Assembly (NCBI GenBank): GCA_947175875.1
Contig: CAMWON010000002.1
Coordinates: 80,357-144,356 of the forward strand
DNA length: 64,000 nt
DNA from: an uncultured Alphaproteobacteria bacterium
GTDB lineage: Bacteria; Pseudomonadota; Alphaproteobacteria; Rs-D84
Reading direction: 5' to 3'
Within the stretch, counting starts at the first letter, position 1. Every line of letters begins with the position of its first letter. The notes under the pieces were generated by a model, which did no database searches, had not been told where the DNA came from, and saw nothing but the letters and a program-made list of their open reading frames with translations. The translations under genes were made by a program, and so were the position numbers. This document shows positions 14,285 to 60,438 of this stretch, in pieces.

Positions 14285-14400
14285 TTTTTTCCAGTTTGTA
14301 ATTGAATCCGATAAAGCTTTGTGTAATAATTATCCTGTCGGCGAGGGTTTCGCCGATGGGGTGTCAGAACCTCTGCCATAGCGTCTGGATAAAATTTTAT

Positions 14401-14424
14401 GGCGCGCAATGCGCCCGTTTTTAT
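14401..14424 (+). terminator. Rho-independent terminator downstream of ftsK
   Basis: Hairpin ggcgc-gcaat-gcgcc followed by cgtttttata. Confidence 0.6.
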
Positions 14425-14425
14425 A

Positions 14426-14573
14426 TTCGGACGAAAAACAAACTCCTGAACCGCGGGTCAGGAGGGTTGCGAATATATTGAATAAGCACACAATTCTATG
14501 GATTGTTCTGAACCTCCTGACCACTCAAATTTTGGGTGGTTTTTCATTTCGAAAAACAACAGGAGAAGAACGA
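14426..14573 (+). promoter_or_regulatory. Structured 5' leader of Cys-rich paralog 1 with alternative pairings and a terminator-like hairpin + U-run immediately upstream of the RBS
   Basis: Hairpin ctcctga-accgcgg-tcaggag (about 14444-14464). A second cctcctga copy (about 14513-14520) can compete for the tcaggagg arm. Hairpin ccactc-aaattttg-ggtgg + ttttt (about 14521-14544) ends about 30 nt before the ATG. The same architecture sits upstream of paralogs 2 and 3. Confidence 0.4.
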
Positions 14574-15203
14574 ATGAAATTCAATATTTTAACATTTGGT
14601 TTTGCCATAATGTTGCTTGTGTCGTCGGCATATGCGGACGAGTTTATTCTGGGGCAGGATGATTATGGCGGAATGGACATCGCCATCGGGCAGCAATGCT
14701 CGTCAGGGGGCAAAATCCTTATAAAATGTGAATGTGCATCTCCAAATATAGGCGTAAGTGCCCTGTGTTCTACGAAGGAGTTTGTTCCGGATGGCGGGTG
14801 CAAGCTGGCGGGGGGCGAGCACATCAATGCCAATTATTATTGTGTTGATGCGGAATATGACACCGCGTGCATGTTATGTAAGTGCAATAATGGTCAAACG
14901 TCAACGGCGTGGGGCTCTGTCGGCAGTAATCGGGTGTCGCGTACAAAGTATACAACAACTGTAAGTGGATATCGCTGTAGTTCCGTGTCAAGTACCGAAT
15001 ACGGGTGTGCGGCGGGGTATTATCAATCCGGCGGCAGCGGTGCGACAATGACGTGCGCACGTTGTCCGTCGTCGGGTGGTGTTTATGGCACAAATAATAT
15101 CGGCACGACGGATATAACGACATGCTGCATTCCGGCAAATTCGTCAATGAAGGATTCGGGGGGCACATACACTTTTACGGGAGGGTGCTGTTATAAAAAA
15201 TAA
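14574..15203 (+). CDS. Secreted cysteine-rich protein, paralog 1 (conserved C-terminal Cys module, unknown family)
   Basis: RBS caggagaag; signal peptide MKFNILTFGFAIMLLVSSAYA; 20 Cys in the mature part. C-terminus GCAAGYYQSGGSGATMTCARCPSSGGVYGTNNIGTTDITTCCIPANSSMKDSGGTYTFTGGCCYKK is shared with the ORFs at 47833 and 48631. Confidence 0.6.
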   Translation: MKFNILTFGFAIMLLVSSAYADEFILGQDDYGGMDIAIGQQCSSGGKILIKCECASPNIGVSALCSTKEFVPDGGCKLAGGEHINANYYCVDAEYDTACMLCKCNNGQTSTAWGSVGSNRVSRTKYTTTVSGYRCSSVSSTEYGCAAGYYQSGGSGATMTCARCPSSGGVYGTNNIGTTDITTCCIPANSSMKDSGGTYTFTGGCCYKK

Positions 15204-30867: not shown

Positions 30868-30900
30868 CCCAACAGGGCGTGGCAATCCAGAAATAAAATC

Positions 30901-30921
30901 CCGCCATCGGCGGGATTTTTA
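30901..30921 (+). terminator. Terminator-like hairpin cccgcc-atc-ggcggg + attttt
   Basis: GC stem followed by a T-run. It could terminate a short transcript containing the upstream inverted repeat. Confidence 0.45.
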
Positions 30922-31019
30922 TCATGCAATTTTCATTACAGTGATTGTTAGAAGTCCGGTCGGGCGATGACGATATATTTAAGAAGACGCGATTCGTCGC
31001 CGCCCGTTATAATTAAATA

Positions 31020-31115
31020 AAGACCACCGGAAAATTCAGGTGGTCGGGGTGTTTAGAAAATCGACAAGTAGCGACCCCGTTGGCCTTCGGCGAACCTTAT
31101 AACCAACGGCACCCC
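31020..31115 (+). ncRNA. Candidate structured RNA element (nested GC-rich helices); identity and strand unknown
   Basis: Long-range 10-bp complement GGTCGGGGTG...CACCCCGACC enclosing CCGTTGG...CCAACGG, which encloses a gccTTCGggc-like hairpin. Adjacent hairpin accacc-ggaaaattca-ggtggt. No ORF with sensible composition. Coordinates approximate. Confidence 0.25.
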
Positions 31116-31287
31116 GACCATGTGTGTCAAGGCATAACGGTGCAAAAACGCAACCGCATACGGATTTCAGATAGATGCAATTTGCACCGTACTTGTCGGG
31201 CTTTCTAAAGGCCCCGAACCCAAATTCCCATTCAGGTTCATTTATTATTATACATTACATTCGGGTAAATCACAAGAATAGATTCAT

Positions 31288-47207: not shown

Positions 47208-47501
47208 ATGAGACCCGGATTGTGGCAAATTGTATTGGTTATCGTTTTGATTTTCATTCTGTTCGGCAGCAGCAAGATTCCGGACATGATGAAAAATCTG
47301 GCGGGTGGAATAAACGTCTTTAAGAAAGAATTGAAAGACGACAAATCGCAAGAGGCGCCAAAGAAAGCGCAGGCGGTCAAAACGGTGGCAAAGAAGCCCG
47401 CGGCCGTAAAGAACGCGGCGAAAAAAGCCCCTGTTAAAAAGGCGCCCGTGAAAAAGGCGGCGGCTAAAAAGCCTGTGGCCAAAAAGACCGCAAAAAAATA
47501 A
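47208..47501 (+). CDS. tatA: Twin-arginine translocase subunit TatA/E-type
   Basis: MRPGLWQIVLVIVLIFILFGSSKIPDMMKNLAGGINVFKKEL has the TatA TM + amphipathic helix signature. Lys/Ala-rich tail. Confidence 0.8.
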   Translation: MRPGLWQIVLVIVLIFILFGSSKIPDMMKNLAGGINVFKKELKDDKSQEAPKKAQAVKTVAKKPAAVKNAAKKAPVKKAPVKKAAAKKPVAKKTAKK

Positions 47502-47520: not shown

Positions 47521-47555
47521 AAGTGCGACCGGTGTCGGTCGCACTTGTTTTTTTT
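47521..47555 (+). terminator. Rho-independent terminator after tatA
   Basis: aagtgcgaccg-gtgt-cggtcgcactt, a 12-bp stem, followed by gtttttttt. Confidence 0.65.
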
Positions 47556-47709
47556 ATCCGCTTAAATTATACTGAACGTGAATTCAACAGGGATGTTGGT
47601 TCTGGGACTTGAAAATCCCATAAGCAAACGGCGCAATGCGTCGTAATCCGACATGAAAATGCGGCGTGTTTTACGTTGCATGTTTTGTACCCGGCTGTTG
47701 GCCGGGGAT

Positions 47710-47812
47710 CTGTGATTATAAGGGCGCGAACGCGCCCGAAGGTCACAGGGTCATTTTTGCTTATGATTTTTCAAATCCCCGGCCGCCATTTCTTTGGCGG
47801 TATTTCTTTTTA
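47710..47812 (+). promoter_or_regulatory. Structured 5' leader of Cys-rich paralog 2 with two terminator-like hairpins, the second ending about 30 nt before the ATG
   Basis: ctgtga-[ggcgcgaacgcgcc]-tcacag with tcattttt (about 47710-47758), then ccgcc-atttctttg-gcgg + tatttcttttt aacc (about 47783-47815), then RBS aaaaaggagcgggtag ATG. Confidence 0.35.
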
Positions 47813-47832
47813 ACCGAAAAAGGAGCGGGTAG

Positions 47833-48603
47833 ATGAAAAGAAAGCATAAAACGTGTTTTGTCGCAATCGGAATAATAATTGGCCTGGGGGGCGTGGGGCG
47901 CGCGGCAACCCCAACAGTCGAAACGTGCGCAGAAGCTTTTGCAACCGAAGCGCCGGAATGCATATCGTGGGATTTTTTTACTTCCGGTATGGGGAATGGG
48001 GGGGAAATGTATATTTGTTCATGCGCAGAATGCGAGTCCGGGTATCATAATGACGGTTCAAGTAAATATAAATATTATAAAAATGATTATTTTTATATGT
48101 CTAATTCTTGTAATAAAGCAACAGAAACAGGTGGTGGCGGGGGTGGCACAACAACCAAAACGTGCAGCAAGGGTTCATTGTGCACAATGTGCAAGGGGCC
48201 GAATGTGACCATAAACGGTCAAATATATTGCGGCCTGTGGGCCGATACCAACGGGGTTAAAACCTGTTCGGCATCATCTGTTGGGGCGAATGTCGCATAT
48301 ACCATGTCGCCGTGTTGCGATTCTGATGGCAAAGCGGTTGGAGGCGCGACGGGTTGTTACGTTATATCATGCAAGACGGGGATGGTTGCGTCCGATGCGA
48401 AAACGTCATGTGTTTGTGATGTCGGATACTATGGAACAACGACCACGGGTTGTACGCGGTGTCCTGCGTCCGGCGGTACGTACGGGCTGACCAGCGGCAA
48501 GGGCAGTACGCAAATTACCGATTGTTATTTTCCGGCCGGTCTATTGATTAAAGACACCACCGGTACGTATCAATATACCCAGGATTGTTATTATTCTAAT
48601 TAA
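47833..48603 (+). CDS. Secreted cysteine-rich protein, paralog 2 (conserved C-terminal Cys module)
   Basis: Signal peptide MKRKHKTCFVAIGIIIGLGGVGRAA; Gly-run GGGGGGTTT. C-terminus CVCDVGYYGTTTTGCTRCPASGGTYGLTSGKGSTQITDCYFPAGLLIKDTTGTYQYTQDCYYSN aligns with paralogs 1 and 3. Confidence 0.6.
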   Translation: MKRKHKTCFVAIGIIIGLGGVGRAATPTVETCAEAFATEAPECISWDFFTSGMGNGGEMYICSCAECESGYHNDGSSKYKYYKNDYFYMSNSCNKATETGGGGGGTTTKTCSKGSLCTMCKGPNVTINGQIYCGLWADTNGVKTCSASSVGANVAYTMSPCCDSDGKAVGGATGCYVISCKTGMVASDAKTSCVCDVGYYGTTTTGCTRCPASGGTYGLTSGKGSTQITDCYFPAGLLIKDTTGTYQYTQDCYYSN

Positions 48604-48604
48604 A

Positions 48605-48633
48605 ACAAACCCGCCGTTTGGCGGGTGTTTTTA
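48605..48633. terminator. Bidirectional terminator between convergent Cys-rich paralogs 2 and 3
   Basis: aaacaaa cccgcc-gtttg-gcggg tgttttt: the hairpin core cccgccgtttggcggg flanked by A-run and T-run. Confidence 0.6.
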
Positions 48634-49299
48634 CTTTGTGTAGCAGCATTCTTTATTGAATGTCCCCGAGCCAGTTGAATCAGAAAAAGATGTGCCGGCT
48701 GGTATGCAGCATGTCGTTATATCTGTTGTGCCGATTGCATTTGTGCCCCGTGTGCTGCCTGATCCCGGACATAGTGTGCATACAGTGGATGCGCCACTGC
48801 CGCCGGACTTGTAATAACCGGCTGCGCAGCCGTATTCTGTTGTTGCCGGGCGTTCTTGCGAGCAGTAATAATAATTGCGCGAATCACTGCCGTTAAACGA
48901 TGCGACTTGTCTGTGTACAACATAACCGGAATATGTCGACCATTTACTGTACATGGGTTCAGATTGTTGTATGCCGCATGCGCTGCATGCGGATTCGCCC
49001 CCGGAATAACAGAAATATTTTGCGCCGTTTGCATCTGTACCGATAAGGCAGTCGCTAAGGTTGCTGTTATAGTCATCAGTTGTTGGCGGGCAGGTTGAAA
49101 AGTGAGTCGTATTACTGCATTCAATATGTTTGCAATCACATTTTCCGAGTATGTAATCGCCGGGGCCGCTGCTGCCTTCATAGCAGTATGAACCTATTGT
49201 TGATGCTGTGGTCGCAATCAGCCGATATGTGGCTGCATCGGTTACATTTGGTGTGGCAATTGACAGGCATATTGCCGGTATAAAAAGTTTCTTTATCAT
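48631..49299 (-). CDS. Secreted cysteine-rich protein, paralog 3 (conserved C-terminal Cys module)
   Basis: Start at MIKKLFIPAICLSIATPNVTDA (signal). C-terminus YGCAAGYYKSGGSGASTVCTLCPGSGSTRGTNAIGTTDITTCCIPAGTSFSDSTGSGTFNKECCYTK. Confidence 0.6.
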   Translation of the reverse strand: MIKKLFIPAICLSIATPNVTDAATYRLIATTASTIGSYCYEGSSGPGDYILGKCDCKHIECSNTTHFSTCPPTTDDYNSNLSDCLIGTDANGAKYFCYSGGESACSACGIQQSEPMYSKWSTYSGYVVHRQVASFNGSDSRNYYYCSQERPATTEYGCAAGYYKSGGSGASTVCTLCPGSGSTRGTNAIGTTDITTCCIPAGTSFSDSTGSGTFNKECCYTK

Positions 49300-49324
49300 T
49301 TCTGATCCCCCGTTTTCCTTGGTT

Positions 49325-49355
49325 AAAAAGAAAACCACTAAATAAATTCAAGTGG
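49325..49355 (-). promoter_or_regulatory. Terminator-like hairpin + U-run immediately upstream of the RBS of Cys-rich paralog 3 (leader attenuator candidate)
   Basis: Minus-strand reading: ccact-tgaatttattt-agtgg ttttcttttt aacc aaggaaaacggggga...ATG. It shares the tttctttttaacc tail with the paralog 2 leader. Confidence 0.35.
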
Positions 49356-49631
49356 TTGGAGGTTCGAAACAATTATAGAGAATTGCGGGCTTATTTATAT
49401 ATATCACCCCCCTCCAACCGCGGGGTTGGGGGAATAGCACCACGTATCAAATGAAAGTGCCGTGCGAACGTAGGTTGCCCGGCAGCGTCAATTTGTCAGT
49501 GGTGTTTTTTTCTTGTCTTGATGCAAGACACTCTATAACGGGTTTCGACGCCCCGCCGCAGGAATATCCCGCGGCGTTTTTATGTTGGCATAATGTATGC
49601 GGGCTGTAAAGAAAAATGTGCAAAAAAATAC

Positions 49632-49660
49632 CCCGCCGTTTGGCGGGTGGTTTTAATTCT
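49632..49660 (-). terminator. Rho-independent terminator downstream of dksA (minus strand)
   Basis: Same hairpin core cccgccgtttggcggg as at 48610, with a T-run on the minus strand (the plus strand reads caaaaaaata before it). Confidence 0.55.
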
Positions 49661-60362: not shown

Positions 60363-60438
60363 TGGTGGGCGCGCAGGGACTCGAACCCTGGACCCACTGA
60401 TTAAGAGTCAGTTGCTCTACCAACTGAGCTACGCACCC
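60363..60438 (-). tRNA. tRNA-Lys (anticodon CTT), CCA encoded
   Basis: Reverse complement GGGTGCGTAGCTCAGTTGGTAGAGCAACTGACTCTTAATCAGTGGGTCCAGGGTTCGAGTCCCTGCGCGCCCACCA: 7-bp acceptor, D-arm GCTCAGTTGGTAGAGC, anticodon loop CTCTTAA, T-arm GGGTTCGAGTCCC. Near-identical to E. coli tRNA-Lys. Confidence 0.85.

Follow-up and report, generated by a model that had tools for sequence, protein, structure and literature searches.

The systems closest to the element described here are RNA leaders in which alternative pairings precede a regulated gene. In attenuators of the trp, his, leu and phe type, pairings arranged by 1:2, 2:3 and 3:4 logic lie just upstream of the regulated gene. In ON riboswitches built on a three-way junction (purine/pbuE), the 3' strand of the closing helix is at the same time the 5' arm of the terminator, and covarying stems go along with conserved loops and junction nucleotides. 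In ANTAR targets, the ribonucleic antiterminators (RAT) of LicT and BglG, PyrR leaders and T-box leaders, an antiterminator opposes a terminator within a long leader. A different kind of relative is sRNA-Xcc1 (Rfam RF02221), an 88-nucleotide (nt) RNA of X. campestris established by rapid amplification of cDNA ends (RACE) and Northern blot, which was described as a trans-acting small RNA (sRNA) and not as an attenuator (PMC2996969). Here, we analyze a 64,000-nt stretch of DNA from an uncultured gut-type alphaproteobacterium (contig CAMWON010000002.1, positions 80,357 to 144,356; the window in the following), in which three genes encoding cysteine-rich (Cys-rich) secreted proteins are each preceded by a hairpin with a U-run. 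We conclude that this hairpin is probably the terminator of a cis-acting conditional transcription attenuator located within a conserved leader RNA.

The leaders resemble each of the described attenuation systems in part. Like the trp/his/leu/phe type, they contain mutually exclusive 1:2, 2:3 and 3:4 pairings, but where those attenuators have a simple antiterminator helix, the leaders have an ornate, sequence-conserved three-way junction. The features listed above for the purine/pbuE riboswitches are all found in the leaders, which, unlike these riboswitches, have an extra upstream competitor (segment 1), a large 5' domain and no metabolic logic in their downstream genes. With ANTAR targets, RAT/LicT-BglG, PyrR and T-box leaders they also share the occurrence of multiple copies per genome, a possible regulon, but no gene for a cognate regulator was found. 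The mechanism type is classical and the junction is sRNA-Xcc1-like; the family, the composite architecture and the context are new, and the leaders constitute a previously undescribed, covariation-supported leader RNA family. In the literature, we found no described motif of this kind for gut Alphaproteobacteria.

A conserved leader RNA upstream of Cys-rich genes

All three Cys-rich genes of the window carry the hairpin and U-run ahead of their ribosome-binding sites, as an earlier note on this DNA had claimed; read from the sequence, the structures lie 27-33 nt before the ATG. As the window contains only three Cys-rich open reading frames (ORFs) with a C-terminal GYY..C..CP module, the "all three" of that note is accurate. 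The tail said to be common to two of the paralogs, TTTCTTTTTAACC, recurs in copies 2 and 3, and the competing pairings proposed for copy 1 can be read directly (CTCCTGA at 14443-14449, TCAGGAG at 14458 and CCTCCTGA at 14513) and covary among relatives. A consensus terminator scanner lists the hairpins of copies 1 and 2, but misses that of copy 3, because its loop comprises 11 nt and the limit of the scanner is 8.

The three upstream regions align over ~250 nt, and the three leaders fold far better than shuffled sequences (z = -4.1, -6.8 and -6.8). The shared leader proposed by the first reading is real, but it is ~240 nt long and not ~150 nt as read, and a fourth copy at 31011-31275 (minus strand) had been overlooked.

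A protein-alignment search with one genome per species yielded eight loci, all from gut-type Alphaproteobacteria or Rickettsiales metagenome-assembled genomes (MAGs), and the leader was present upstream of all eight as well as of the three window paralogs (11/11). A DNA pattern derived from the most conserved stretch retrieved 120 metagenome loci, ~37 of which carry the leader. The same pattern gave 21 matches on viral contigs, none of which was confirmed by a covariance model, so that these matches serve as a negative control. Altogether, the leader emerges as a conserved, structured 5' leader RNA of ~175-270 nt with ~39 distinct relatives from gut alphaproteobacterial MAGs and metagenomes (individual loci are given by L numbers below).

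Three covariance models were built: R1 from 33 sequences, with copies 1 and 3 but not copies 2 and 4 in its seed; R2, the seed of which includes copies 2 and 4; and R3, which covers the 5' domain (H1/H2) and has copies 1, 3 and 4 in its seed. R1 scored copy 1 at 109 bits (expectation value [E] 8e-24), copy 3 at 91.6 bits (E 1e-19) and copy 2 at 35.5 bits (E 3e-6); with copies 1 and 3 in the seed, the copy 2 score alone is independent among the three paralogs. R1 also detected copy 4 outside its seed (31014-31141, minus strand, 37.2 bits) and, among further non-seed detections, a second copy in L015 (66 bits), L007 (34 bits) and a second copy in L006 (30 bits), while R2 found a second copy in L045. 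The ORFs following these second copies encode Cys-rich secreted proteins in L015 and L006 and a lipoprotein-like product in L045. R2 scored its seed members copy 2 and copy 4 at 57 and 46 bits, respectively. R3 gave 63, 54 and 24 bits for its seed members, copies 1, 3 and 4, but only 12.5 bits (E 0.1) for copy 2, the 5' domain of which is therefore divergent. Judged by the strength with which the covariance model scores the sites, the leader hairpins are not chance structures.

From 5' to 3', the consensus consists of a sigma-70 promoter, hairpins H1 and H2, a variable hairpin H3, segments 1, 2 and 3, the terminator, the Shine-Dalgarno (SD) sequence and the ATG. The promoter reads cTTGnnn, 17 nt, TAnAAT, with the -10 element ending ~6 nt before H1, a 7-8-bp hairpin with the loop GGGUGUUCC. 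H2 (GGGGUGUnnnnACCC) is followed by AAGCGUC and by H3, closed by CGUC/GACG, and then by an A-rich linker; the distance from H2 to segment 1 varies between 17 and 114 nt among relatives. Two alternative partners, segments 1 and 3, are available to segment 2; when it pairs with segment 3, the resulting 2:3 helix is the closing helix of a three-way junction with stems P3 and P4. P3 is a covarying stem with a conserved A/U-rich loop (GAAUAUAUUGAAUAAG), into which several members have a 3-8-bp hairpin inserted; P4 (ACAAUU/GAUUGU) is followed by a 6-nt joiner ending in AA, segment 3, and the hairpin with its U-run. Both the P3 loop and H3 accommodate optional hairpins of variable length between conserved flanks, as is typical of a folded RNA. 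The distance from the U-run hairpin to the ATG is 26-39 nt in most leaders, and the SD lies within this stretch.

The position of the promoter bears directly on whether the hairpin resides in a 5' untranslated region (UTR). In most leaders, the best -10 element ends 6 nt before H1 with a 17-nt spacer, and a score of at least 8/12 was reached in 32/35 leaders compared to 29% of shuffled sequences. No promoter-like site was seen in the 26-39 nt between hairpin and ATG of most leaders. Moreover, upstream genes have their own terminators, which precede the leader promoter (47521-47546 and 49632-49647 in the window; likewise at L001, L003, L004 and L008). The earlier note had itself named hairpins ending upstream genes, with separate promoters behind them, as the rival to conditional read-through; the promoter position, the upstream-gene terminators and the covarying competing pairings instead favor a terminator-like structure within the 5' UTR. 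A TATAAT in the P4 loop of copy-3-type leaders, considered as an internal promoter, was rejected, as it is not conserved in the other types; such a promoter is also unlikely because its transcript would keep the terminator but lose segment 2.

The hairpin itself has the makings of an intrinsic terminator, for which a G+C-rich stem of at least 5 bp and a U-tract are expected: stems are 7-10 bp long, their predicted energy averages -10.5 kcal/mol, and 36/39 members have at least six T residues in the 8 nt following the GGUGG arm.

Mutually exclusive pairings and the attenuation model

Segments 1, 2 and 3 change together across the copies, such that segment 2 remains complementary to both others. 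In copy 1 they read CUCCUGA, UCAGGAGG and CCUCCUGA; in copy 3 CCAACC, GGUUGGAGG and CCUCCAACC; in copy 2 CCCGGC, GCCGGGGAU and AUCCCCGGC; and in copy 4 CCUUGAC, GUCGGGGUG and CACCCCGAC. Copy 4, L016 and L080 have a segment 1 that is unlike segment 3 and nevertheless pairs with segment 2 via G.U pairs (two in copy 4). Pairing maintained by G.U is strand-specific and points to the RNA level of the sense strand, in agreement with R1 scores of 109 bits for the forward and 21 bits for the reverse strand of copy 1.

Alignments of the relatives support both folds. With 2:3, P3, P4 and the upper terminator (alignment A5, 38 distinct sequences), 92.9% of positions were paired, compared to 82.6% in shuffles, with double changes in 17/24 pairs; with 1:2, P3, P4 and the full terminator (A6, 39 distinct sequences), the values were 95.5% and 82.8%, again with double changes in 17/24 pairs. 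For each fold, 0/500 shuffles reached the observed value, and slid controls of the 2:3 structure were 29-56% paired. Considered separately, the 1:2 helix was 90.8% paired with compensatory changes in 5/7 pairs, the 2:3 helix 93% with changes in 7/10 pairs, and the terminator helix 97.1% (39 sequences) with changes in 6/7 pairs. All four P3 pairs showed compensatory changes, and P4 was 98% paired. In the 5' domain (A7, 35 sequences), H1 was 93.5% paired with compensatory changes in 7/7 pairs, and H2, mostly invariant, was 87% paired with double changes in 1/4.

In every sequence examined, the last 2-4 nt of segment 3 (GACC, AACC or GGCC) are also the first nt of the terminator 5' arm, where they pair with GGUU. 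Because of this overlap, the 2:3 helix and the terminator are mutually exclusive; formation of the 1:2 hairpin makes segment 3 available to the terminator. Read from the sequence, the 1:2, 2:3 and 3:4 pairings thus represent an anti-antiterminator, antiterminator and terminator arrangement. We compared the energies of the two folds in a register-independent manner, by blocking either segment 1 or the core of segment 3 and refolding. The mean difference between the folds was 2.4 kcal/mol (standard deviation 3.4) for the full-length RNA; before the terminator 3' arm is made, the junction is favored by a mean of 3.8 kcal/mol. These calculated energies agree with the picture of a poised switch whose first structure to form is the 1:2 hairpin.

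Based on these observations, we propose the following course of events. Transcription would start at the predicted site at H1, so that H1, H2, H3 and then the three segments are made in order. The G-rich, SD-like segment 2 would pair with segment 1 as a local hairpin, the first to form during transcription; alternatively, it would pair with segment 3 in a 9-10-bp helix that closes the three-way junction with the conserved P3 and P4. In the latter case, the junction would take 4 nt of the 7-10-bp terminator stem, dismantling the terminator and allowing RNA polymerase to read into the gene. With the 1:2 hairpin formed, the terminator would remain intact, and transcription would stop ~30 nt before the start codon; in this off state, the free CCUCC of segment 3 could also pair with the SD of read-through transcripts. 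The balance might be set by an effector, conceivably a small molecule, protein or RNA, that stabilizes the junction or blocks segment 1. Like riboswitches in general, the leader couples a covariation-supported structured domain to a mutually exclusive expression platform; should a ligand exist, the leader would be an orphan riboswitch candidate. The design, with an anti-antiterminator, an ornate three-way-junction antiterminator, a terminator and possibly added SD masking, has parts that can each be tested by mutants.

Structures, their mutual exclusivity and conservation, the promoter position and the association with genes are direct observations, and on them we base the view that an attenuator probably operates here. 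A number of points weigh against it. The start site of transcription, actual termination, read-through, switching, and the existence and nature of an effector are model predictions. The pattern by which most metagenome members were found prescribes P4 and the CCTCC core, so that conservation of these parts is partly due to ascertainment and their invariance is no evidence; it leaves free the covarying positions in segments 1-3, P3, the terminator and H1. Pair counts are biased toward the imposed structures, as alignments A5 and A6 had been fitted to the models, and related sequences inflate the shuffle test. L062, L126 and L026 have a poor U-run. Copy 4 and L019 lack a downstream gene, which fits an independent sRNA equally well. 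Finally, the downstream genes, encoding secreted proteins with no function assigned, yield no metabolic clue or ligand candidate.

Known regulatory classes did not account for the leaders. An Rfam scan of the whole window at the gathering thresholds left them unmatched, and E-value scans of the four leaders and the eight protein-selected loci returned sub-threshold sRNA-Xcc1 matches plus noise, and nothing else. Riboswitch, T-box, PyrR and thermometer models gave no match at the gathering threshold or with E up to 10 (hence also no T-box model match with specifier loop and T-box sequence), and the amino-acid leader models gave sub-threshold chance matches elsewhere, nothing more. A leader peptide was considered on account of a recurrent ATG-GGG-TGT in H2, and rejected: copy-3-type leaders lack the motif, and the ORFs that it opens in other leaders differ in frame, length and stop. 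ANTAR targets are characterized by two tandem hairpins whose hexaloops have A at position 1 and G at position 4. The leaders do not fit this signature, as their P4 loops have 4-7 nt starting with CU and the P3 loop has ~15 nt or is an internal loop plus hairpin. The sequence GAUUGUUACU in some members resembles the start of RAT, which we take to be a coincidence because GAUUGUUACU forms the 3' strand of P4.

Relation to sRNA-Xcc1 and alternative explanations

The nearest Rfam family to the leaders, missed by the earlier note, which had suggested an Rfam search, is sRNA-Xcc1. Copy 2 (47700-47792) matched RF02221 with 32.1 bits, E ranging from 3e-4 to 4e-3 depending on the search space, and its orthologue in L007 with 32 bits, in both cases below the gathering score of 53 bits, so that by this threshold the leader is not a member; copies 1, 3 and 4 showed no match to RF02221 at all. 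As positive controls, bona fide sRNA-Xcc1 elements from viral contigs (L210, L211, L202 and L204) scored 65-84 bits. In the reverse direction, R1 detected one of these four (L210, 18.5 bits, E 0.028) in the same register, R3 did not match the bona fide loci, and a BLAST search of plasmids with the sRNA-Xcc1 consensus gave no match.

The likeness extends to the structural plan. The three-way junction of RF02221 is found in the leaders, with the alignments in the same register. Both RNAs have a G/C-rich closing helix of 9-10 bp, then P3 with an A/U-rich internal loop (5' AAUA, 3' GAAUA) and an optional distal hairpin; an adjacent 6-bp P4 with a loop starting with CU; a 6-nt U-rich joiner; and a following hairpin. 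Further common features are the occurrence in multiple copies and a position shortly before genes. To this plan, the leaders add the segment 1 hairpin, a U-run terminator overlapping the closing helix and an H1/H2 domain detectable by a covariance model. The hosts differ: the leaders reside on chromosomes of gut Alphaproteobacteria next to secreted Cys-rich genes, sRNA-Xcc1 in integron cassettes and prophages of Gamma- and Betaproteobacteria. From these sequence comparisons, a distant relationship between the leader and sRNA-Xcc1 is probable; at the least, the two have the same structural plan.

The surroundings of sRNA-Xcc1 are of interest in this regard. It is found upstream of symE in integron cassettes (bioRxiv 10.1101/2025.06.18.660453) and upstream of an ORF6N-domain gene in APSE phages (bioRxiv 10.1101/2020.03.17.996009), and Xylella fastidiosa has seven copies (PMC12189769). 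Among our positive controls, sRNA-Xcc1 lies 30-60 nt upstream of ORFs in L202 and L204. The products of these two ORFs we read as putatively KilA-N/Bro-N-like. At L202 (3400-3534), L204 (10740-10873) and L210 (1160-1291), a GGGUCUCAAAAGCCC-type hairpin, AAGCGG and a GC hairpin with U-run precede sRNA-Xcc1, with ORFs 30-60 nt after it. By eye, these upstream hairpins resemble H2 and H3; as R3 is blind to them, we do not claim homology with H2/H3. In L210, the 5' strand of the closing helix has a potential pairing partner upstream, CGGCCAUUG. Given upstream hairpins and downstream ORFs, the Rfam sRNA-Xcc1 model may cover just the 3' domain of a longer leader.

It is conceivable, although we hold it to be rather doubtful, that the three-way junction serves as the sensor in a new class of riboswitch or RNA switch, of which sRNA-Xcc1 has a diverged version. 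The sRNA-Xcc1-type elements that precede symE and other prophage or integron-cassette genes would then likewise switch in cis instead of acting in trans as sRNAs, and one and the same cellular signal would govern toxin or phage genes in other Proteobacteria as well as the secreted Cys-rich proteins of gut Alphaproteobacteria. The structural link suggests that what is widely annotated as an "sRNA" may form the core of a leader acting in cis, which would call for reinterpretation in Xanthomonas, Xylella, integron cassettes and prophages.

The same kinship could be turned around, making the element mainly an independent sRNA gene that is distantly related to sRNA-Xcc1, has a promoter and a terminator of its own and acts in trans or in some other way, the genes being co-inherited and expressed by unregulated leak-through. 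We consider this unlikely. The nearest Rfam family is indeed an 88-nt sRNA mapped by RACE and Northern blot, copy 4 and L019 come without a downstream coding sequence (CDS), and a hairpin with U-run and A-rich stretches are typical sRNA features. However, all 11 protein-selected loci and nearly all others have a gene 26-39 nt after the hairpin, leaving no space for a separate promoter; a simple sRNA needs no two mutually exclusive covarying folds; and bona fide sRNA-Xcc1 is itself positioned 30-60 nt upstream of ORFs.

Control might also be exerted mainly at translation, with CCUCC of segment 3 as anti-SD, segment 2 as anti-anti-SD and the hairpin bringing segment 3 and the SD together, termination being incidental. 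Indeed, the minimum-energy fold of the copy 1 leader pairs CUCCUG of segment 3 with the SD CAGGAG, enclosing the hairpin, and the SD regions, as we read them, show the extended SD CAGGAG in most leaders of the CUCCUGA type. Complementarity between segment 3 and the SD region of the same leader exceeds that of mismatched pairs (-9.2 kcal/mol compared to -8.3 kcal/mol with those of other leaders; 28 leaders, permutation p ~0.0004, not corrected for kinship). Any SD is, however, partly complementary to CCUCC by default, and the permutation test ignores relatedness; moreover, neither the U-run (36/39) nor the conserved 4-nt overlap of segment 3 with the terminator is needed for an SD mask. We therefore judge translation as the main level of control to be improbable. 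As a second layer, it is compatible with the attenuator; the calculated pairing suggests that segment 3 may also act as anti-SD on transcripts that escape termination, and is suggestive only, because of the default match of any SD to CCUCC. With regard to an RNA thermometer, the SD lies outside any local hairpin and is able to pair with segment 3, and no Rfam thermometer family matched.

Very improbable, in our view, is a constitutive structural 5' UTR that does not switch, either stabilizing the mRNA via H1 or acting as a put/EAR-like, RNA-polymerase-binding processive antiterminator. H1 does sit at the predicted +1, and a 5'-terminal hairpin is a known mRNA stabilizer, as in the ompA 5' UTR; put and EAR elements have highly conserved junction nucleotides, as observed here. 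But both pairings of segment 2 are kept by compensatory changes, the two folds are nearly isoenergetic, and a terminator inside a purely stabilizing UTR would be counter-productive. Ordinary terminators of upstream genes, or DNA repeats (repetitive extragenic palindrome- or miniature inverted-repeat transposable element-like, or recombination sites) that lie before the paralogs by chance, would explain four copies in 64 kb and the 18-nt terminator hairpin that is repeated identically at either end of the copy 3 cassette, but have next to nothing in their favor once it is considered that separate terminators of the upstream genes precede the leader promoter, that G.U-dependent, strand-specific covariation argues for RNA pairing, that segments 1-3 differ among the copies of one genome, contrary to homogenized repeats, and that the orientation to the downstream gene is always the same.

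Downstream genes and feature map of the window

The genes that the leader would control encode mainly secreted proteins. Of 29 downstream ORFs, 23 pass a crude signal-peptide heuristic, and by eye all except that of L126 begin like signal peptides; 19/29 contain at least 5% Cys, and most carry a C-terminal GYY..C..CP..IT.CY module. The few other secreted products include GYTFxGW-repeat proteins (L045, L062 and L096) and a Cys-poor protein (L070). The three proteins of the window (14574-15203 and 47833-48603, plus strand; 48631-49299, minus strand) are 34-42% identical to each other and share the C-terminal pattern E-Y-G-C-A-A-G-Y-Y ... C-x2-C-P ... I-T-x-C ... C-Y-Y. They have no match in Pfam, NCBIfam or among PDB sequences and, on this sequence evidence, are an uncharacterized protein family; lacking a match to any described family, they are candidates for host- or community-facing surface factors. 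The leader precedes, and by our proposal controls, this multi-copy secreted family, and a new regulatory RNA family would thus come from uncultured gut bacteria with almost no known regulation.

The features of the four copies are compiled in Table 1. In copy 1, the -10 element ends 6 nt before H1, like in most relatives. The distal hairpin of its H3 (GGCGCGCAATGCGCC, 14401-14415) is followed by CGTTTTTATA (to 14425) and is therefore itself terminator-like; copy-1-type relatives keep a GC hairpin with U-run at this site, which could be a second, earlier attenuation point. The 3' domain of copy 2 is the part that scored with R1, R2 and RF02221.

Table 1. Positions of leader, terminator and gene features of the four leader copies in the window
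Feature	Positions	Strand	Details
Copy 1 promoter	14302..14330	+	-35 TTGAAT 14302-14307, 17-nt spacer, extended -10 TGTGTAATAAT (-10 AATAAT 14325-14330)
Copy 1 5' domain	14337..14373	+	H1 GTCGGCG 14337-43 : CGCCGAT 14351-57; H2 GGGGTGTCAGAACCTC 14358-73
Copy 1 H3	14382..14433	+	variable-length hairpin closed by CGTC/GACG
Copy 1 segment 1	14443..14449	+	CTCCTGA; putative anti-antiterminator strand
Copy 1 segment 2	14456..14465	+	GGTCAGGAGG; partner of segment 1 or segment 3
Copy 1 P3 + P4	14466..14506	+	GTTGC 14466-70 : GCAC 14486-89, conserved loop GAATATATTGAATAA; ACAATT 14490-95 : GATTGT 14501-06
Copy 1 segment 3	14513..14522	+	CCTCCTGACC; putative antiterminator 3' strand; last 4 nt GACC begin terminator stem
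Copy 1 terminator hairpin + U-run	14519..14549	+	stem GACCACTCAA 14519-14528 : TTGGGTGGTT 14532-14541; T-run to 14544
Copy 1 SD + Cys-rich CDS	14560..15203	+	SD CAGGAG 14560-65; ATG 14574; stop 15203
Copy 2 promoter/H1/H2	47545..47620	+	TTGTTT 47545-50, 17 nt, TATACT 47568-73; H1 47580-47602; H2 47603-47620
Copy 2 3' domain	47680..47811	+	segment 1 CCCGGC 47690-95; segment 2 GGCCGGGGAT 47700-09; P3 47710-48; P4 47749-68
Copy 2 3' domain, continued		+	segment 3 ATCCCCGGCC 47775-84; terminator 47781-47802, stem GGCCGCC 47781-47787 : GGCGGTA 47796-47802, then TTTCTTTTT 47803-47811; U-run to 47811
Copy 2 SD + Cys-rich CDS	47822..48603	+	SD GGAG; ATG 47833
Copy 3 promoter/H1/H2	49540..49610	-	TTTACA 49610-05, 17 nt, CAACAT 49587-82; H1 49575-49555; H2 49554-49540
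Copy 3 3' domain	49325..49440	-	segment 1 CCCCCAACC 49432-24; segment 2 GGTTGGAGG 49419-11; P4 49386-69
Copy 3 3' domain, continued		-	segment 3 CCTCCAACC 49362-54; terminator 49357-49333, stem AACCACT 49357-49351 : AGTGGTT 49339-49333, then TTCTTTTT 49332-49325; U-run to 49325
Copy 3 SD + Cys-rich CDS	48631..49311	-	SD GGGGGAT 49311-05; ATG 49299; stop 48631-33
Copy 4, orphan	31011..31275	-	promoter TTGTGA/TATAAT; H1; H2; segment 1 CCTTGAC 31132-26; segment 2 GTCGGGGTG 31118-10
Copy 4, continued		-	segment 3 CACCCCGAC 31051-43; terminator 31045-31022

Downstream of copy 4, no ORF was found before the next terminator at 30891-30920, and the intervening region contains ~90 nt of further hairpin-forming sequence. 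Copy 4 may be an RNA in its own right or what was left behind when a gene was lost.

Copy 2 is preceded by a gene for a TatA-like protein, recognized by its N-terminal sequence and bearing a long Lys/Ala/Pro-rich C-terminal tail (47208-47501, plus strand); the T-run of the terminator of this gene overlaps the -35 element of the copy 2 promoter. The copy 3 cassette (leader and gene) is flanked by the identical 18-nt terminator hairpin CCCGCCGTTTGGCGGGTG at 48610-48627 and 49632-49649, 1022 bp apart. These repeats may be a trace of insertion or duplication of the cassette beside a dksA-like gene.

Two further observations concern other elements. The sole match at an Rfam gathering threshold in the window is a transfer RNA gene (60366-60438, minus strand). 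In addition, a conserved, GC-rich element of ~90 nt (GGCCGGGGGAGCC...GGTGCGAG...CGCGGTTCGGGGCG...CCCCGGCCACCC), which surfaced among the chance matches of a pattern scan, recurs in the viral contigs L165, L166, L169, L172, L173, L178, L191 and L221.

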